A stretch of 21,829 nt of DNA from an uncultured Candidatus Saccharibacteria bacterium (GCA_964519145.1 CAZFHL010000008.1:1-21829), one strand, 5' to 3'. Shown: positions 751-19,375, counted from the stretch's first letter. Notes: generated by a model not told the origin, from the letters alone. Program-made: numbers and translations.

Positions 751-838
751 ATATTTAATCTAAATTTAAACTAATTTTTATAAAAATTTAGTAGTTTTTA
801 TTTATCAAAATTATTTATAGAGAATGATATTTTTGTTG

Positions 839-1156
839 TTAAAGATTTTTCGATAAATTTCTGATTTCTTCTGATAAAGCTTCTAATCCTTTTTGATTTG
901 CTTGGCATAAAGCATCTCTTAGTGTTTCATCTGCTAGATTGCTTCTATCTGTTATTATATAAATTTTAGCCAATTCTATTTGAAATTTCACCCTGTCTTC
1001 AATTGTTCCTCCAGGTTTATCATTTTCTTCAAATCTTTGATTATGCCAATCATCTATTTGTGCTAGTAATTCTGCAGAAAGACCTTCATTTTTAAAAAGT
1101 TCTGAAATTCTATTTCTAAAACTTTCAAAATTTTCTATATCATTTTGATTTTCCAT
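839..1156 (-). CDS. Hypothetical protein, 105 aa, acidic and predicted helical
   Basis: Clean ORF with an ATG start at 1154-1156 and an AT-rich upstream region. No recognisable motif. Confidence 0.55.
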   Translation of the reverse strand: MENQNDIENFESFRNRISELFKNEGLSAELLAQIDDWHNQRFEENDKPGGTIEDRVKFQIELAKIYIITDRSNLADETLRDALCQANQKGLEALSEEIRNLSKNL

Positions 1157-1235
1157 ATCTATAGTTTAGTTTAAATTTAAAGAAAAATAAAGCTTGAGGA
1201 TAAAACTAAAATGTTTATTACAATTTTATATAAAT

Positions 1236-1264
1236 ACAAAAATGGGGCACCTGTGTGCCCCATT
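1236..1264 (-). terminator. Intrinsic terminator in minus orientation: hairpin tggggcac-ctgt-gtgcccca followed by TTTTTG
   Basis: Perfect 8-10 bp GC stem at 1241-1264. The T-tract is on the minus strand only (plus-strand caaaaa at 1236-1242). It therefore ends a minus-strand transcript coming from the GC island on its right. Confidence 0.55.
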
Positions 1265-1760
1265 GACCGAACCGAACCTTACTCCTTGTCGCCTCGCGCG
1301 CGGTTTGCCGCCGCGCTGTGAATTCGAACGATTTCGCTCAAGGGCACATTGCCCAAGAGCAAGAACCGTCCCTCCTGCCCGAGTCGGCGCGCGGTGCGCG
1401 CCGACTCCACGACAATAGGCTGTCCTGGGCGCGCAGCACCCTGCGTGATAAAACTCTTCATTTCAATCTCCTCTCTCTGGACTACCCTCCAGAGTGGGTT
1501 GTTTCTAGGAATCGATGCGATTCCTCTTTTCAGCACAATTTTATGAATTGATGGTGCTGAAGAAGAGGAATAACATTAAATATCTAAAATTCTCTTTCTT
1601 TAAGAGAAGCGGGAGAGCAAGCTTTAAAATTATATATATTACTTTAGGTTGTTCCCGCGCTTCTTTCAAAGAATTTTATTTTAGAAAGACCCCTATTTAT
1701 TTGTTAAAAAACTTTTGACCCCCTACCCTGCCACCTACAATCTTCTCTGTACTACTCTTT
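1241..1760 (-). ncRNA. Unclassified GC-rich structured element. Candidate ncRNA whose core is 1241-1525.
   Basis: Sharp switch from AT-rich to GC-rich sequence. Perfect hairpins: gagtcggcgcgc-ggt-gcgcgccgactc (1381-1407), ctctgga-ctaccc-tccagag (1474-1493), ggaatcg-atg-cgattcc (1508-1524), cagcac..gtgctg (1532-1560), and a long-range pairing gaagcggga (1607-1615) / tcccgcgcttc (1653-1663). ORFs in all frames are Arg/Pro/Ala-rich, consistent with noncoding sequence. It did not match remembered RNase P, tmRNA or SRP core motifs. Confidence 0.3.
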
Positions 1761-1969
1761 AACCTTACACATACAGTATAGCATTTATATGAAATTTTGT
1801 CAAGTATAATATGACAAAAACAGTTATTTATATTATAGTATCCTAAGATATGGCTCTAAATATAGATTTATATCAGACAGTAAAATGTCTTATATAATGA
1901 CATTTATTGAATATGATAATATGTTTTGTGTTATACTAAATAATATTTAATATTAAATTATTAAAATAA

Positions 1970-2278: not shown

Positions 2279-3763
2279 ATGAATAATTTTAAAATAGAAA
2301 AATTTAATATACCAGAAGAGGTTTCATATGTAACAAATAAGCTTAAAGACGCAGGTTTTGAGGCTTATTTGGTTGGTGGTTGTGTTAGGGACTTATTTAT
2401 GAATAAAAAACCTAAAGATTGGGATATAACAACAAATGCTTTGCCAGAAGAAATAATAAGCTTGTTTGAAAAAACTGTATACGAAAACTCCTTTGGTACG
2501 GTAGCTATAGTAAATGAAAATGTTTCTGATGAAACATTGAAGGTTATAGAAATAACTCCATATAGGTCTGAAAGCCTCTATTCTGACAATAGAAGGCCTG
2601 ATAATGTTGTTTTCGGGCAAAGTATAGAGGAAGATTTAAAAAGGCGTGATTTCACAATAAATGCCATTGCTTATGACCCCATAAATTTAAATATTATAGA
2701 TCCATATTTTGGTATGGCTGATATATTAAAATCAGTTATAAGAACTGTTGGTGACCCTTATGAAAGACTAAAAGAAGATGGTTTGAGGGTTTTTAGAGCT
2801 GTTAGGTTTCATGTGGAACTTGGCTTCCCTATCGATACGGAAACAGAAAAAGCTATTATTGAGAATAAAGATATATTAAAAAATATTTCTAAAGAAAGAA
2901 TAAGAGATGAGTTTATTAATATAATAATGTCAAAAAGACCAATAGATGGAATGGTTTTGTTAAAAAAGCTGGGTCTGGTTTCTTTTATCGCCAAAGAACT
3001 TGAGGAATCTTTTGATATTGAACAAAATAAGGCTCATTCTTATGATGTTTGGACTCATTTAATAAAGACATTACAACACTCTGCCGATAAAGAGTACCCA
3101 ATTCATTTAAGACTGGCTTCCCTATTTCATGACATATCTAAACCTAAAACAAGAAAATGGGATAATGATTCAAAACAATGGACTTTTTACGGTCATGAGG
3201 TGGTTGGTTCACGTGTAACCAAAAAAATACTAGAAAACCTAAAGTTTTCACGTGAAACAATAGACCGTGTTGTAAATTTGGTTAGGTGGCATATGTTTTT
3301 TTCTGATACTGAACAAATAACCATATCTGCTGTAAGGAGAATGATAGTTAATGTTGGAAAAGAAAATATTTGGGATTTAATGAATCTTCGTATTTGCGAT
3401 AGGGTAGGTACTGGAAGGCCAAAAGAAGATCCTTATAGATTAAGGAAGTATTATTCTATGATTGAAGAGGCTATGAGAGACCCTATATCTGTTTCTATGC
3501 TTAAAATAAATGGTAATAGGCTTATGGATATGCTTGAAATAAAAGGTGGTCCGAAAATAGGTTATATATTAAATTCATTGTTAAATGAGGTATTGGATGA
3601 TCCAGAAAAAAATAATGAAGATTATTTGGAAAATAGGTCTAAAGAATTATTTATGATGGATGATAAAGATTTAAGGAAACTTTCAGAAAAGGGTAAAGAG
3701 AATAGGGAAGAGAAAGACAATAAAATTGTTGAGGAAATAAGAAAAAGACATTTTGTTAAATAA
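2279..3763 (+). CDS. cca: CCA-adding tRNA nucleotidyltransferase with HD domain and a Lys/Glu-rich C-terminal tail
   Basis: The N-terminal GGCVRDLFMNKKPKDWDITT polymerase-beta nucleotidyltransferase motif, RRDFTINA, and the HD region LFHDISKP...GHE. ATG start at 2279. Confidence 0.85.
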   Translation: MNNFKIEKFNIPEEVSYVTNKLKDAGFEAYLVGGCVRDLFMNKKPKDWDITTNALPEEIISLFEKTVYENSFGTVAIVNENVSDETLKVIEITPYRSESLYSDNRRPDNVVFGQSIEEDLKRRDFTINAIAYDPINLNIIDPYFGMADILKSVIRTVGDPYERLKEDGLRVFRAVRFHVELGFPIDTETEKAIIENKDILKNISKERIRDEFINIIMSKRPIDGMVLLKKLGLVSFIAKELEESFDIEQNKAHSYDVWTHLIKTLQHSADKEYPIHLRLASLFHDISKPKTRKWDNDSKQWTFYGHEVVGSRVTKKILENLKFSRETIDRVVNLVRWHMFFSDTEQITISAVRRMIVNVGKENIWDLMNLRICDRVGTGRPKEDPYRLRKYYSMIEEAMRDPISVSMLKINGNRLMDMLEIKGGPKIGYILNSLLNEVLDDPEKNNEDYLENRSKELFMMDDKDLRKLSEKGKENREEKDNKIVEEIRKRHFVK

Positions 3764-4194
3764 TTATTTTTCAACATAACAATAAGCCATGTGTTTAAAG
3801 ATATCTTTAAATCTAAATATGCTTTTAAATATGAACTATTTATATAAGACTTATATAAATAAGACATTAAAATTAAAAATAAGACAGTTATCCACAACTA
3901 GTCCTTTACACTTTGTTTTAAAAGACATATAATGATATCAGACAGTTAGTATTGTAAAGTAAATTCTAACTATTGGTTCTTTAAAAAGTTCCTTTTGTTT
4001 TTAAAAAGAAAACTTGGTTAAGCAAAAGAATCAAGATATATACATCTCCTCAAAATAATATTTAAAAAATGTGAGATTATATCATTTCTTTTGAACGCGC
4101 TTCTTGACTGGGATTATCTTTTAAATAGATTCCCGGCTCCACCTGTGAATATAATAAAAATTGTATTTAGAAGTGGGGCTGGGTAGAGTGTGTC

Positions 4195-4250
4195 AAGCCA
4201 CTTGTGTTTTAGCGAATCCTCCACCGCTAAAAATGGGTGGCTTTTTGTTT
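4195..4250 (+). terminator. Intrinsic terminator-like hairpin plus T-tract. It may end a small RNA in the 3764-4341 spacer.
   Basis: agccacttgtgttttagcg ... cgctaaaaatgggtggct forms a long imperfect stem. ccacc/ggtgg is the inner stem. It is followed by ctttttgtttatc. Confidence 0.35.
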
Positions 4251-4298
4251 ATCTTATTTTTAGATATAAACAATTTATTTTTGTTTTATTTTTAAAAA

Positions 4299-4306
4299 AT
4301 TGTATA
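4299..4306 (+). promoter_or_regulatory. Extended -10 box (TGTATAAT) 36 bp upstream of the DUF378 gene
   Basis: The sequence attgtataattga matches TGnTATAAT. Confidence 0.3.
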
Positions 4307-4341
4307 ATTGAGAGTATTAGAAGTTAATATAAAATAAATAT

Positions 4342-4557
4342 ATGAAAAAGCTTCATGGTTTAACTTTCATTCTTCTTGTAATTGGAGGATTGAATTGGGG
4401 ACTAGAATTTTTAGGGTGGGGTATTGGAAACTATATTCCATCTGGTATAGCTAGCTTGATTTATCTTTTGGTAGGTATTTCAGCTATTATTGAAATCTTT
4501 TCTCATAAATCAAACTGTAGATGCTGTGATAGCTCTAGTATGCCTAAACCAATGTAA
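4342..4557 (+). CDS. DUF378-family small membrane protein with a Cys-rich C-terminal tail
   Basis: 71 aa with two TM helices. The GGLNWGL motif is characteristic of DUF378. The tail is CRCCDSS. Confidence 0.7.
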   Translation: MKKLHGLTFILLVIGGLNWGLEFLGWGIGNYIPSGIASLIYLLVGISAIIEIFSHKSNCRCCDSSSMPKPM

Positions 4558-4578
4558 TATAGTTGGTTTTTTTGATTT

Positions 4579-4606
4579 CAAAAAATTACCGAGAGGTAAT
4601 TTTTTG
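4579..4606 (+). terminator. Intrinsic terminator: aattacc-gagag-ggtaatt followed by TTTTTG
   Basis: 7-bp stem plus T-tract, 22 bp after the DUF378 stop. Confidence 0.6.
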
Positions 4607-4638
4607 TTATAAATTGAGTCTTTTAGAGCCATTTGAGT

Positions 4639-4733
4639 GGTACTAGTATTTATGTGCCTAGCGAGCGCGACTGGCGCTGGCTTCGCAGGAATTTTTCACC
4701 AGAAAAATATCTGTGCACAGAAATACTAGTATC
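4639..4733. repeat. Mosaic repeat, copy E. Module M2 in inverted orientation, enclosed by its own 17-bp inverted repeat tactagtatttatgtgc / gcacagaaatactagta.
   Basis: Reverse complement contains gatatttttctggtgaaaaattcct + 22-nt GC core + tcgctagg. Compare copies A and B. It sits between the convergent DUF378 gene and xth, so it may also act as a bidirectional terminator. Confidence 0.65.
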
Positions 4734-4757
4734 GGAAAAATGGTTTTAAAAAATCTA

Positions 4758-5555
4758 TTATAAATCAATTTCTAAAATAATAGGGCAGTGGTCTGAACCC
4801 ATTACATCTGATAAAATTTTGCTTGATTTTATTTTCTTTTTTAATTTTTCACTAATTATAAAATAGTCTATTCTCCAACCTATATTTCTAGCACGAGAAT
4901 TTGCAAAGTTCGTCCACCAAGAGTAGTACCCTTTTCCCTCTGTAAACATTCTAAAACTATCTAAAAACCCAGCATTTAGTATTTTTTGGAAACCATCTCT
5001 TTCTTCTTTGGTAAATCCATGTTCACCTTCGTTTTGCTTTGGATTGGCAAGATCGTTTTCTGTGTGAGCTACATTTAGGTCTCCACAAAAAATCACAGGC
5101 TTTTCTTTTTCTAACTCTTTTATATATTCTAAAAATGCCGGATCCCAACCACTATGACGAAGGGGGAGTCTAGATAAATCTCCTTTTGAGTTTGGGGTAT
5201 ACACTGTCACTACAAAAAATTTTTCAAACTCTGCTGTTAAAACTCTGCCTTCTTTGTTTGGATTGCCATATTTATCTTTTTCTAAATTATATTTTTGAGC
5301 GATTTTTTCAGGTAAATCAAAAATAACTTTGAGAGGTTTAACTTTGCTCATTATGGCTGTCCCAGAATATCCAGCTTTTTCTGCACAGTTATAATATTCT
5401 TCATAATCTGGCAAGTCTATTTCTATCTGGTGTTTTTGAGCTTTGATTTCTTGAAGACAAACAATATCTGGTTTGTATTTTTCCAAAAATGGTAAAAATA
5501 AACCTTTGTTATTGATGGCTCTTATCCCGTTTACATTAAAAGATACAATTTGCAT
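4758..5555 (-). CDS. xth: Exodeoxyribonuclease III / AP endonuclease (EEP family)
   Basis: MQIVSFNVNGIRA...CLQEIK at the N-terminus, the WRIDY motif and SDHCPI at the C-terminus. 265 aa. Confidence 0.9.
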   Translation of the reverse strand: MQIVSFNVNGIRAINNKGLFLPFLEKYKPDIVCLQEIKAQKHQIEIDLPDYEEYYNCAEKAGYSGTAIMSKVKPLKVIFDLPEKIAQKYNLEKDKYGNPNKEGRVLTAEFEKFFVVTVYTPNSKGDLSRLPLRHSGWDPAFLEYIKELEKEKPVIFCGDLNVAHTENDLANPKQNEGEHGFTKEERDGFQKILNAGFLDSFRMFTEGKGYYSWWTNFANSRARNIGWRIDYFIISEKLKKKIKSSKILSDVMGSDHCPIILEIDL

Positions 5556-9321: not shown

Positions 9322-10248
9322 TCACTTCTTATTATGAAATTTTTTGTGGATTTCTCTTAAATGCTTGTCTGTGACATGAGTATAAATTTGGGTTGTGCCT
9401 ATATTTGCATGACCTAAAAGGGCTTGAACACTTCTTAAATCAGCTCCATTTGATAGTAGGTCTGTGGCAAACATATGTCGCATGGTATGAGGTGTCACTC
9501 TTTTAGATATACCTGCTTTGATAGCACAGTTTTTTACTATTCTTTCTACTGATCTTTTGGTTAAAGCCAAACTTTTATTTCCATCTTTCTTATTTTTATT
9601 GTTTTTTGAAAATTGTATAAATAATGCATCGTCCAAATCTTTTCTCTTTGATAAATATTCCTTTAAAATTTTTTTTGCATATTCTGATATAAATACTACT
9701 CTTACTTTTCTACCTTTACCTATTACAGAAAGTTCATCTGTGGTTAAATCTATATCTCTTGTAAGAGAACAAAGCTCTGATACACGAAGCCCAGTAGAAA
9801 AAAGTAATTCTAAAATAGCTCTATCTCTCAAAGCAGACACATCATTGCCTTCTGGGGCGTTCAAAAGCCTTTTTAGTTCGGCATTTGTGATCAAATCAAG
9901 AGATTTTTCTGGTATTTTTGCGAGCTCAATTCTCTCTGGTGGCAATGTCTTTATTTCTTGTCTTGCTAGATATTTTAGAAAAGCTCTTATGGCGATAAGA
10001 TAATAATTTTGAGTTTTTTTTGTTAGTGTCCTATCTGAACCAACAATTCCTCTTATTGTTTGTCTATTGAGCCAAAGGCGAAACTCTCTCATGGTCTCGT
10101 TTGTTATGTCTTCTGGTTTTGTGATTTTGATTTGTTCTATAAATACAGTTAAATAATGATTATAATTTTCAATTGTTTTAAGTGATCTGCCTTTTTCTAT
10201 TTCTATATATTCAAGAAATCTTCTTTTTAATTCTGTTAAATCAAACAT
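9322..10248 (-). CDS. Tyrosine site-specific recombinase, XerC/XerD-like
   Basis: C-terminal HTMRHMFATDLLSNGADLRSVQALLGHANIGTTQIYTHV carries the R..H..R..Y catalytic signature. The start is most likely the internal ATG at 10246-10248 (MFDLTELKRRFLEY), not the TTG at 10284 given in the ORF track. Confidence 0.85.
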   Translation of the reverse strand: MFDLTELKRRFLEYIEIEKGRSLKTIENYNHYLTVFIEQIKITKPEDITNETMREFRLWLNRQTIRGIVGSDRTLTKKTQNYYLIAIRAFLKYLARQEIKTLPPERIELAKIPEKSLDLITNAELKRLLNAPEGNDVSALRDRAILELLFSTGLRVSELCSLTRDIDLTTDELSVIGKGRKVRVVFISEYAKKILKEYLSKRKDLDDALFIQFSKNNKNKKDGNKSLALTKRSVERIVKNCAIKAGISKRVTPHTMRHMFATDLLSNGADLRSVQALLGHANIGTTQIYTHVTDKHLREIHKKFHNKK

Positions 10249-10416
10249 ATCATCAATTATACATTTGAAATCTTGATGTCGCAAAATATTTTGATTTATT
10301 TCCTGGTTATTTTACTTAGATTTTTGGTTTATTTTTGTAGTTAGGGGTAGAATTCGGGTACGATATATTGACTTTTTTAATTAAATATTATACCATAATA
10401 AATGGAGGCAAGAAAA

Positions 10417-11355: not shown

Positions 11356-11511
11356 TCCTTCAAAAGTCTTTCTTGTCTTAAATTACAAAACTCTTTCTCA
11401 TCACACCTTTTTGAACCACGGATATTTTTTTGCTAAAAAATTCCTCGAGCTCGCTCCGTCGAGACTCGCTAGGCTTCAAAAAGCTATGATTTCGAAGAGT
11501 TTTGAAAGATG
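11356..11511. repeat. Mosaic repeat, copy B. Full unit of left inverted-repeat module, M2 with a variable core at 11446-11465, and right terminus gagttttgaaag.
   Basis: Aligns base for base with copy A outside the core. The left end ccttcaaaagtctttctt matches copies C and D. It sits between the rpsO stop and the NYN/pilB operon. Confidence 0.75.
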
Positions 11512-19168: not shown

Positions 19169-19375
19169 TATTCCAAAAGTCTTTCTCATTTTCAATTTCA
19201 AAACTCTTTCTCATCACACCTTTTTGAACCACAGATACTATGTATCTCCAAAAAATCTTTTTTAGTATAGTTTTTGCTAGACACGCATAAAAATCTGCTG
19301 ATTTTTTGCTATGCTCGGTTCAGTCAACCTTGCGCAAGTCTATCAAAAACTATACTAAAAAAGATTTTTTGGAAG
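19169..19375. repeat. Mosaic repeat, copy C. Left inverted-repeat module, a palindrome gatac-tat-gtatc, then M3 nested inside ccaaaaaatcttttt / aaaaagattttttgg.
   Basis: 19170-19238 matches 11357-11425 (copy B). 19263-19356 matches 2111-2199 (copy D). Lies between the pilin-like gene and tpiA. Confidence 0.75.

Follow-up and report, generated by a model that had tools for sequence, protein, structure and literature searches.

A GC-rich island between two tRNA genes of a candidate-phyla-radiation contig resembles an exchangeable micro-gene of 60 codons more than it does a conserved structured RNA

Several bacterial systems share single traits with the locus described below. In hok messenger RNA (mRNA), the 3' end folds back onto the translation initiation region. 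The vls locus of Borrelia is GC-rich and pilE of Neisseria has a G-quadruplex (G4), loci of the kind that encode comC, agrD or ribosomally synthesized and post-translationally modified peptides (RiPPs) are not known to deviate in GC content from the rest of their genome, the leader peptides known from attenuators (14-30 codons) are much shorter than 60 codons, and some large ornate RNAs are found near tRNA genes. Here, we describe a GC-rich island in a 21,829-nucleotide stretch of DNA (the window) from an uncultured Candidatus Saccharibacteria bacterium (GCA_964519145.1, CAZFHL010000008.1:1-21829), a member of the Candidate Phyla Radiation (CPR), whose bacteria are tiny, mostly uncultured epibionts with an almost unknown accessory biology. 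An earlier note, made from the DNA sequence alone, had presented positions 1241-1760 chiefly as a structured non-coding RNA (ncRNA) and, alternatively, as a micro-gene; its direction of reading, its terminator and its failure to recognize any known RNA family stand, while its headline fits poorly with a second copy of the locus. Compared with that copy, the locus has more the look of an exchangeable 60-codon micro-gene than of a structured RNA under conservation.

The window is part of an AT-rich chromosomal contig (31% GC; window mean 0.308), which the analysis assigns to the Parcubacteria/Paceibacterota and within which the island has 62-65% GC. Measured in 200-nt windows, GC content reaches 0.53 (1201-1400) and 0.60 (1301-1500), while the flanks have 0.20-0.35; this confirms the abrupt switch from AT-rich to GC-rich composition described before, and the peak of 0.655 belongs to the only such island in 21.8 kb. 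Reading the unit from right to left, on the strength of a minus-strand intrinsic terminator, likewise proved right: among the terminator-like sites of 20 kb, the hairpin at 1264-1241 followed by TTTTTGTATTT ranks second, and it reads on the minus strand. The earlier note missed a near-consensus promoter of that strand (1803-1775), which scores 11/12 and is the sole site in 20 kb with a perfect -35 and an extended -10 TG. Judging by this promoter, transcription would start at about 1768. Near the unit, plus-strand promoter-like sites occur only at 1811-1839 and 1897-1925, directed away from the unit and toward the tRNA-Arg gene. With a near-consensus promoter and a terminator on the minus strand, 1803-1230 can be taken as one minus-strand unit of about 530 nt. 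Its features, with the gene that follows, are listed from 5' to 3' (minus strand throughout; L231 is the second copy, described after the list).

1803-1775, minus strand: sigma-70-type promoter, with -35 TTGACA at 1803-1798, a 17-nt spacer with TG, and -10 TATACT at 1780-1775
1768-1462, minus strand: AT-rich 5' leader RNA of about 305 nt, 86-100% identical to L231 by segment, and 86-94% beyond its conserved hairpins P-A and H1
1735-1719, minus strand: G-run GGUGGCAGGGUAGGGGG near the 5' end of the leader, 100% conserved in L231
1692-1578, minus strand: long hairpin P-A, in whose basal helix the pair 79:193 changes from G.U to U-A
1576-1541, minus strand: upstream open reading frame (ORF) of 11 codons, MLFLFFSTINS, hydrophobic, overlapping the 5' arm of P-B
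1574-1517, minus strand: hairpin P-B, about 19 pairs, whose 3' arm overlaps the alternative hairpin P-C
1507-1525, minus strand: hairpin P-C, 8-bp perfect stem
1475-1494, minus strand: hairpin H1, 7-bp perfect stem
1471-1459, minus strand: translation initiation region, with Shine-Dalgarno (SD) sequence GGAG at 1471-1468, a 6-nt spacer and ATG at 1461-1459
1461-1279, minus strand: 60-codon ORF, 183 nt including TAA (1281-1279), predicted peptide MKSFITQGAARPGQPIVVESARTARRLGQEGRFLLLGNVPLSEIVRIHSAAANRARGDKE
1458-1417, minus strand: N-terminal coding part, codons 2-15, M[K/NT]SF[IV]T[QP]GAARPG[QK]P, containing hairpin H2 (1441-1427)
1416-1282, minus strand: GC-rich hypervariable core, codons 16-60, 135 nt, with hairpins at 1407-1381 (12-bp stem, 3-nt loop), 1360-1336 and 1316-1298
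1278-1265, minus strand: 3' untranslated region (UTR), conserved in L231, whose tandem UUCGG (GGUUCGGUUCGGUC) has its complement in the initiation region (GAUUGAAAUGAA)
1264-1230, minus strand: intrinsic terminator, with a hairpin at 1241-1264 (10-bp stem with 6 G-C pairs, 4-nt loop) and then UUUUUGUAUUU
1156-839, minus strand: orphan gene of 105 codons, same strand, 85 nt after the terminator

The second copy, L231, is a 1293-nt Logan contig from run SRR22387978 that aligns to window 2016-730. It was reached through the 105-residue orphan protein, which has exactly one other sequence among about 15 billion, so that only two are known; all comparisons of the locus rest on these two sequences, the window and L231. 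Assembly of the same locus from an independent sample rules out, for practical purposes, an assembly chimera. The earlier note had named a chimeric assembly as a way for its candidate to fall, and the island's presence in the other sample leaves that objection without force. With nothing beyond the abrupt composition switch to speak for it, a chimera or contaminant insert has a near-zero probability, as the same architecture was assembled independently and the flanks continue without a break across promoter, leader and terminator. Identity between the two copies, segment by segment, is as follows.

tRNA parts: 100%
Spacer 1969-1804: 85%
Promoter: 97% (28/29)
Hairpin P-A, 1687-1581: 107/107
P-B/P-C: 91%
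H1 to ATG: 86%
Codons 2-15: 65% column identity
GC core, 1416-1282: 43%
Stop to terminator: 89%
Spacer to the orphan gene: 96%
Orphan gene: 96%

The GC-rich island is thus the sole hypervariable piece of a conserved locus, the opposite of the pattern for a conserved structured RNA, and it is this that the structured-ncRNA headline does not fit, since the island is the very part that is conserved neither in sequence nor in hairpin position. Similarity between the two cores is not significant (global score, P = 0.15), they have in common only one local stretch, an 11-mer whose offset is not the same in the two, and an inversion of the core between strains was excluded because no reverse-complement similarity was found. 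Around and across this unalignable piece, the SD, ATG and TAA are conserved, and both ORFs, which have this start and this stop in common, measure exactly 183 nt. The cores also agree in composition, with GC contents of 0.65 (window) and 0.62 (L231) and GC at codon positions 1/2/3 of.69/.49/.78 and.66/.48/.77 (P = 0.002 and 0.003, respectively, versus shuffles; joint chi-square for three-base periodicity, P = 0.0002). Phase-locked periodicity of this kind reads as the signature of coding sequence from a genome of about 62-65% GC. Indels follow the same boundary: a 3-nt indel lies just inside the ORF, directly after the ATG and in frame, and another, of 1 nt and shortly before the SD, puts a TAG into the upstream extension of L231. 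Codons 2-15 show three synonymous third-position changes, and a G.U pair of H2 becomes G-C in L231. The micro-gene alternative therefore gains support from the periodicity of both cores, the 3-nt versus 1-nt indels and the conserved SD, start and stop. The 60-codon minus-strand frame exists as first described, except that the gap from its stop to the terminator stem is 14 nt, not 17 nt.

The predicted 60-residue peptide is very basic, with an isoelectric point (pI) of 11.5 in the window and 11.6 in L231, and its grand average of hydropathy (GRAVY) is -0.30 and -0.17, respectively, without a hydrophobic helix or transmembrane stretch. Its codons are foreign to the host: GC at third positions is 0.21 in host genes versus about.78 in the ORF cores, a codon-adaptation-like index is 0.22 for the ORF versus 0.58-0.82 for host genes, and the ORF is rich in codons that are rare in the host (CGC 0.5, CGG 0.2 and CGA 1.3 per thousand). 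The ORF has an SD although most host genes lack one; a GGAG-type SD was seen in only 2-3 of 20 larger host ORFs (25 nt upstream inspected), and in several host genes, among them those at 2279 and 19431, a TATAAT box resembling a -10 element lies within a few bases of the ATG on its 5' side. This suggests that the organism uses leaderless or SD-independent initiation. Three other frames were considered and rejected: an extension from an upstream GTG to 85 codons is broken in L231 by the 1-nt indel and the in-frame TAG, a 124-codon antisense ORF called in L231 meets three stops in the same frame of the window, and a 42-codon TTG ORF in the leader (1669-1541) acquires a TAA in L231 through a T-to-A change.

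We favour, tentatively and with slightly less than even confidence, a leader-controlled micro-gene for a very basic 60-residue peptide, in which the coding core is a strain-specific cassette of foreign composition. Starting from the observed anatomy, conservation pattern, periodicity, excess folding and pairing-preserving leader substitutions, this reading would make 1803-1230 on the minus strand a single self-contained gene and the GC-rich island the body of its reading frame, laid out from 5' to 3' as promoter, leader of about 305 nt with hairpins, SD and ATG, 60-codon frame, short 3' UTR and intrinsic terminator. The ORF would be translated, under the control of the leader and of the tandem UUCGG in the 3' UTR, which could pair with the SD-AUG region and so gate translation. 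The 135-nt core, carrying the codon signature of a genome of about 62-65% GC, would be of foreign origin and would be exchanged by recombination within the conserved flanks rather than diverge by point mutation, and selection would act on its length, reading frame, base composition and local hairpin content, not on a particular amino-acid sequence. As to function, a basic nucleic-acid-binding or toxic peptide is a guess made with low confidence.

The leader is the better conserved part of the RNA. The weaker helices reported up to about 1760 are real and larger than claimed, forming two long hairpins, one at 1692-1578 and the other at 1574-1517. Folded to a consensus, the leaders of the window and L231 have 87 pairs; all seven substituted paired positions stay paired and the other substitutions fall in unpaired positions. 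One of these seven pairing-preserving changes is compensatory (G.U to U-A) and the rest are A-U/G.U exchanges, three of them one-sided changes in P-B that retain the pairs (A-U to G.U and two U-A to U.G). Since G.U/A-U exchanges are valid only in minus-sense RNA, this pattern agrees with the strand given by promoter and terminator. The complete identity of P-A (107/107), set against 4-15% divergence in the neighbouring spacers, argues for purifying selection. P-C lies outside the consensus fold and cannot coexist with helix 4 or with the base of P-B; its stem in L231, GGGGUCGC/GCGAUUCC, has two G.U pairs and an extra C-G pair through a two-sided insertion. H1, directly 5' of the SD, is identical in L231. 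The 11-codon upstream ORF is retained in both copies, with a T to A change in L231.

Near the 5' end, the G-run (GGTGGCAGGGTAGGGGG, non-template strand, about 35-50 nt past the predicted transcription start) would, according to the consensus fold, pair with 1513-1507 and 1499-1496 (helices 3 and 4, whose pairs never vary) and so close the leader domain. Instead of this pairing with 1513-1496, it could form a two-tetrad quadruplex. At the other end, pairing of the 3' UTR with the SD-AUG region has a predicted probability of 0.9-0.99 in L231 and 0.2-0.3 in the window; the terminator hairpin that follows is identical in both.

Folding is the evidence on which a non-coding alternative would be built, namely a structured RNA of about 530 nt whose leader is a functional scaffold, whose GC-rich 3' domain is a variable hairpin-dense module (for stability, as a decoy or for specificity) and whose ORF is incidental. 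The perfect hairpins described before all exist, two of them one base away from where they had been placed (1475-1494 rather than 1474-1493, and 1507-1525 with 8 bp rather than 1508-1524 with 7 bp). Perfect stems of at least 7 bp average 0.13 in 1000 dinucleotide shuffles of 1241-1530, and the observed count was never reached, so that the four perfect hairpins are not expected by chance. The 536-nt stretch folds better than its shuffles on the minus strand (z = -7.1; L231, z = -7.2), and both cores, measured as whole 183-nt ORF RNAs, fold beyond codon-order shuffles (z = -3.9 in the window and -4.4 in L231, about -4 in each). The pairing-preserving leader changes, the lack of a protein homologue, the ease with which ORFs arise by chance in GC-rich sequence, and a location between tRNA genes that recalls the sites of some large ornate RNAs all fit such an RNA as well. 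On the other strand, however, the same stretch reaches z = -8.5, because the stems are perfect palindromes, and folding energy alone therefore has no power to pick a strand. The stems are almost all perfect Watson-Crick helices with 3-4-nt loops, and hairpin positions within the core differ between the window and L231. Nor did covariance models find a family: Rfam at gathering thresholds gave only two tRNAs in the whole window, and at E up to 10 gave only chance miRNA-like hairpin matches in 1100-2000 (14-21 bits versus cut-offs of 50-211), the classes considered being ROOL, GOLLD, OLE, HEARO, raiA, group I/II introns, RNase P, transfer-messenger RNA (tmRNA), signal recognition particle (SRP) RNA, 6S, riboswitches and T-box; ARAGORN found no tmRNA. 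This agrees with the earlier failure to match any known family. A non-coding RNA also leaves the periodicity, the in-frame indel and the conserved SD, ATG and TAA unexplained; it is the main rival of the micro-gene and a serious one, though somewhat unlikely.

The 60-codon micro-gene has its own difficulties, and the following points weigh against it. An ATG ORF of at least 60 codons occurs in 69% of shuffles and this specific frame stays open in 57-62% of them, so open frames are expected by chance and ORF length is no evidence of coding; two further frames are open in both copies, and a small high-GC codon model gives an ambiguous result that does not rank the ORF frame first. The hydropathy profiles of the two core peptides are unlike (P = 0.48), and AlphaFold2 (AF2) models the 60-residue peptide with low confidence (predicted local distance difference test, pLDDT, 62). 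A 12-bp G-C-rich stem within a reading frame is odd, and folding of the core far beyond codon shuffles is not needed by a plain protein gene. The peptide has no match in Pfam, PHROGs, NCBIfam or PADLOC and no relative among 5.8 billion protein clusters. With only two sequences, covariation statistics for the leader carry no weight (control), and no donor of either core was found in phage, plasmid, viral-contig and metagenome searches.

Within these searches, blastn against phages and plasmids and tblastn against plasmids gave only short, chance-level matches, and viral contigs scanned with hairpin, leader, terminator and orphan-protein patterns gave seed-only matches. The 60-codon ORF is absent among the proteins called in the public collection. 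The sole protein match (P0122, from 1.84 billion representatives searched with the 60- and 85-residue frames) was discarded: it is a pseudo-protein of tandem repeats, and the summing of five weak matches to them inflates its E-value. A metagenome scan returned one 24-nt exact match, GAACCGTCCCTCCTGCCCGAGTCG, between window 1363-1386 and positions 2332-2355 of L230, a 69% GC metagenome contig, where it lies within the 5' UTR of a sugar-transferase gene. L230 was rejected as donor: the match does not extend (score 50 versus 48 for the 24-mer alone) and its strength equals chance per the plasmid calibration.

The island could also be non-functional foreign DNA, a GC-rich scrap from a host or mobile element in a variable inter-tRNA spacer, with promoter, ORF and terminator coincidental. 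Its anomalous composition without a homologue, the 24-nt match to a 69% GC contig, and a tRNA-Pro/tRNA-Arg interval that holds different genes in relatives would all suit a scrap. That match, however, is within chance and does not extend, P-A is identical at 107/107 positions versus 85% in the neutral spacer, and two unrelated cores share near-identical flanks, identical ORF length, phase and GC content, and excess folding; the chance of a scrap is slim. A more active version of exchange than the favoured micro-gene demands would be a programmed diversification site, at which the conserved leader RNA, with its non-template G-run, and the terminator frame a fixed-length, in-frame GC-rich cassette that is actively replaced, either by gene conversion, with silent GC-rich cassettes at other genomic sites as donors, or by capture of foreign DNA, so that each lineage gets its own basic peptide or RNA module. 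We regard this as quite unlikely.

Downstream, the orphan gene (1156-839) encodes an acidic, all-helical protein without a family match in profile searches and with a low-confidence AF2 model (pLDDT 56); the two copies differ by 8 non-synonymous and 2 synonymous changes. The minus-strand promoter scan had no match in the spacer before it (1240-1157), and the orphan gene may therefore be linked to the GC-rich unit. Such a link is the starting point for a ribosome-sensing attenuator of the orphan gene, in which translation of a frame of rare codons, along with the hairpins of that frame, would decide on the formation of the terminator (1264-1241), and codon class, length and structure would matter rather than the peptide. 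The 85-nt spacer without a promoter-like site before a same-strand gene, a frame built of host-rare codons, an adjacent tRNA-Arg(TCG) gene, and the conserved start, stop and terminator distance with a peptide sequence free to vary would then fall into place. The stop, however, is separated from the terminator stem by 14-16 nt, a distance at which a ribosome that terminates there would probably leave the stem unmelted, and no antiterminator competing with that stem was found, although the leader alternatives P-B and P-C exist. At 60 codons the frame also exceeds the known leader peptides, and relaxed constraint alone cannot yield 57% divergence when neutral flanks differ by 4-15%; we regard an attenuator as unlikely.

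The finding is flanked by tRNA-Pro(TGG) at 677-750 and tRNA-Arg(TCG) at 1970-2042 (tRNA search), and its neighbours are tRNAs, the orphan helical protein, a DoxX-like membrane protein and a CCA-adding enzyme (2279-3763), whose closest public homologues in genomes and metagenomes are at most 66-71% identical. In the closest relatives, the tRNA-Pro(TGG)/tRNA-Arg(TCG) interval holds a UPF0102/YraN gene and tRNA-Gly(GCC) (L081 4009-4718, L083 3998-4863); window 751-1969 lacks both and has the orphan gene and the GC-rich unit in their place. Since contents differ between window and relatives, the interval is a variable inter-tRNA hotspot. Further downstream, gene order is that of the relatives (exonuclease III-like, XerC/D-like recombinase, S15, NYN, type IV pilus genes, TIM, PGK). 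The GC-rich element is missing from all 84 related loci compared by synteny (80 Paceibacterota genomes and the 4 closest contigs), and other GC islands in the compared Paceibacterota loci were dismissed as ordinary genes of higher-GC genomes. Separately, another Paceibacterota contig of 32% GC (L061) has at 1858-2057 a hairpin-rich 52% GC stretch adjoining a tRNA gene. This stretch contains the inverted pair AATGGGGTCAGCCCCCATT / AATGGGGGCTGACCCCATT, has no Rfam match and shows no similarity in sequence to the island of the window.

The 21.8 kb also contain five interspersed copies of an AT-rich palindromic repeat, each about 120-200 nt long and located between genes. Every copy is an inverted repeat whose arms are separated by about 55 nt; the arms 19247-19282/19338-19373, for example, are 97% complementary. 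Two of the five bracket the tRNA-Pro to tRNA-Arg block, and the family looks like a miniature inverted-repeat transposable element (MITE) or repetitive extragenic palindromic (REP) element. Copies lie at:

1-150: AT-rich palindromic repeat
2092-2222: AT-rich palindromic repeat
4604-4768: AT-rich palindromic repeat
11361-11510: AT-rich palindromic repeat
19174-19373: AT-rich palindromic repeat

Elsewhere in the window, 3764-4757 is about 1 kb without an ORF of at least 90 residues and has an 11/12 promoter-like site at 3905-3933 (plus strand); relatives carry a small DUF378 gene at the matching position.

At this CPR locus, a regulatory RNA shell stays nearly constant while a 135-nt core appears to be swapped under the same rules of length, frame, composition and hairpin density. 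Such a pattern would point to extreme allelic turnover of a small protein, of the sort expected from an arms race or from self/non-self recognition, or to an undescribed form of short-cassette exchange. It also advises caution in finding ncRNAs as GC-rich intergenic regions, as here the best-folding GC-rich part is the least conserved, and it carries a coding-type periodicity that gene callers missed.

Compared with known systems, the locus has no second core copy in the window and no reverse transcriptase domain among the window's ORFs, and its cores are unalignable rather than differing at adenines as in diversity-generating retroelements. No attC-like repeat of integron cassettes was seen, and the only tyrosine recombinase (9322-10284) is a conserved XerC/D-like gene in the same place in relatives; the GC-rich hairpins, without further copies in the window, are not of REP/MITE kind. 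As with ROOL, GOLLD and GC-rich intergenic RNAs of AT-rich genomes, a GC-rich and strongly folded transcript of about 530 nt is predicted between two tRNA genes, but it has no covariance-model match at E up to 10 and its GC-rich part is unconserved in sequence and helix position. Leader-peptide attenuators likewise have an ORF with rare codons that ends just before an intrinsic terminator, followed by a same-strand gene without a predicted promoter; unlike them, the locus has 60 codons rather than 14-30, a stop 14-16 nt from the stem, and no antiterminator pairing identified.

Like Borrelia vlsE and Neisseria pilE, it places a GC-rich variable cassette between conserved flanks in an AT-rich genome, with a conserved non-template G-run (1735-1719) just downstream of the promoter. 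Unlike them, it would encode a basic 60-residue peptide without a signal sequence, not a surface protein; its variation is seen between strains only, not within a strain, and no silent donor cassettes for antigenic variation by gene conversion lie within 21.8 kb. Type I toxin mRNAs of the hok/sok kind are not hypervariable and lack the foreign GC content seen here, their toxins are small, hydrophobic and membrane-active, which GRAVY of -0.30/-0.17 and pI of 11.5/11.6 do not fit, and no plus-strand promoter-like site for an antisense RNA antitoxin was found within or left of the unit (a consensus scan, which is weak evidence). Yet the locus shares with them a small monocistronic ORF on a long, very stable and highly folded mRNA with a strong terminator, and it may share a pairing of the 3' end region with the initiation region that would silence the message, which is predicted strongly in L231 but at low probability in the window. 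RiPP precursors such as prochlorosins and the comC/agrD pherotype genes are not known to depart from the GC of their own genome, as this core does; a Gly-Gly or other known leader motif is absent from the 60-residue peptide, and no modification, transporter/export, immunity or sensor genes are nearby among the window's ORFs. Like these genes, however, the locus has about 15 conserved N-terminal residues followed by an unrelated C-terminal part, set between flanks that are near-identical between strains.

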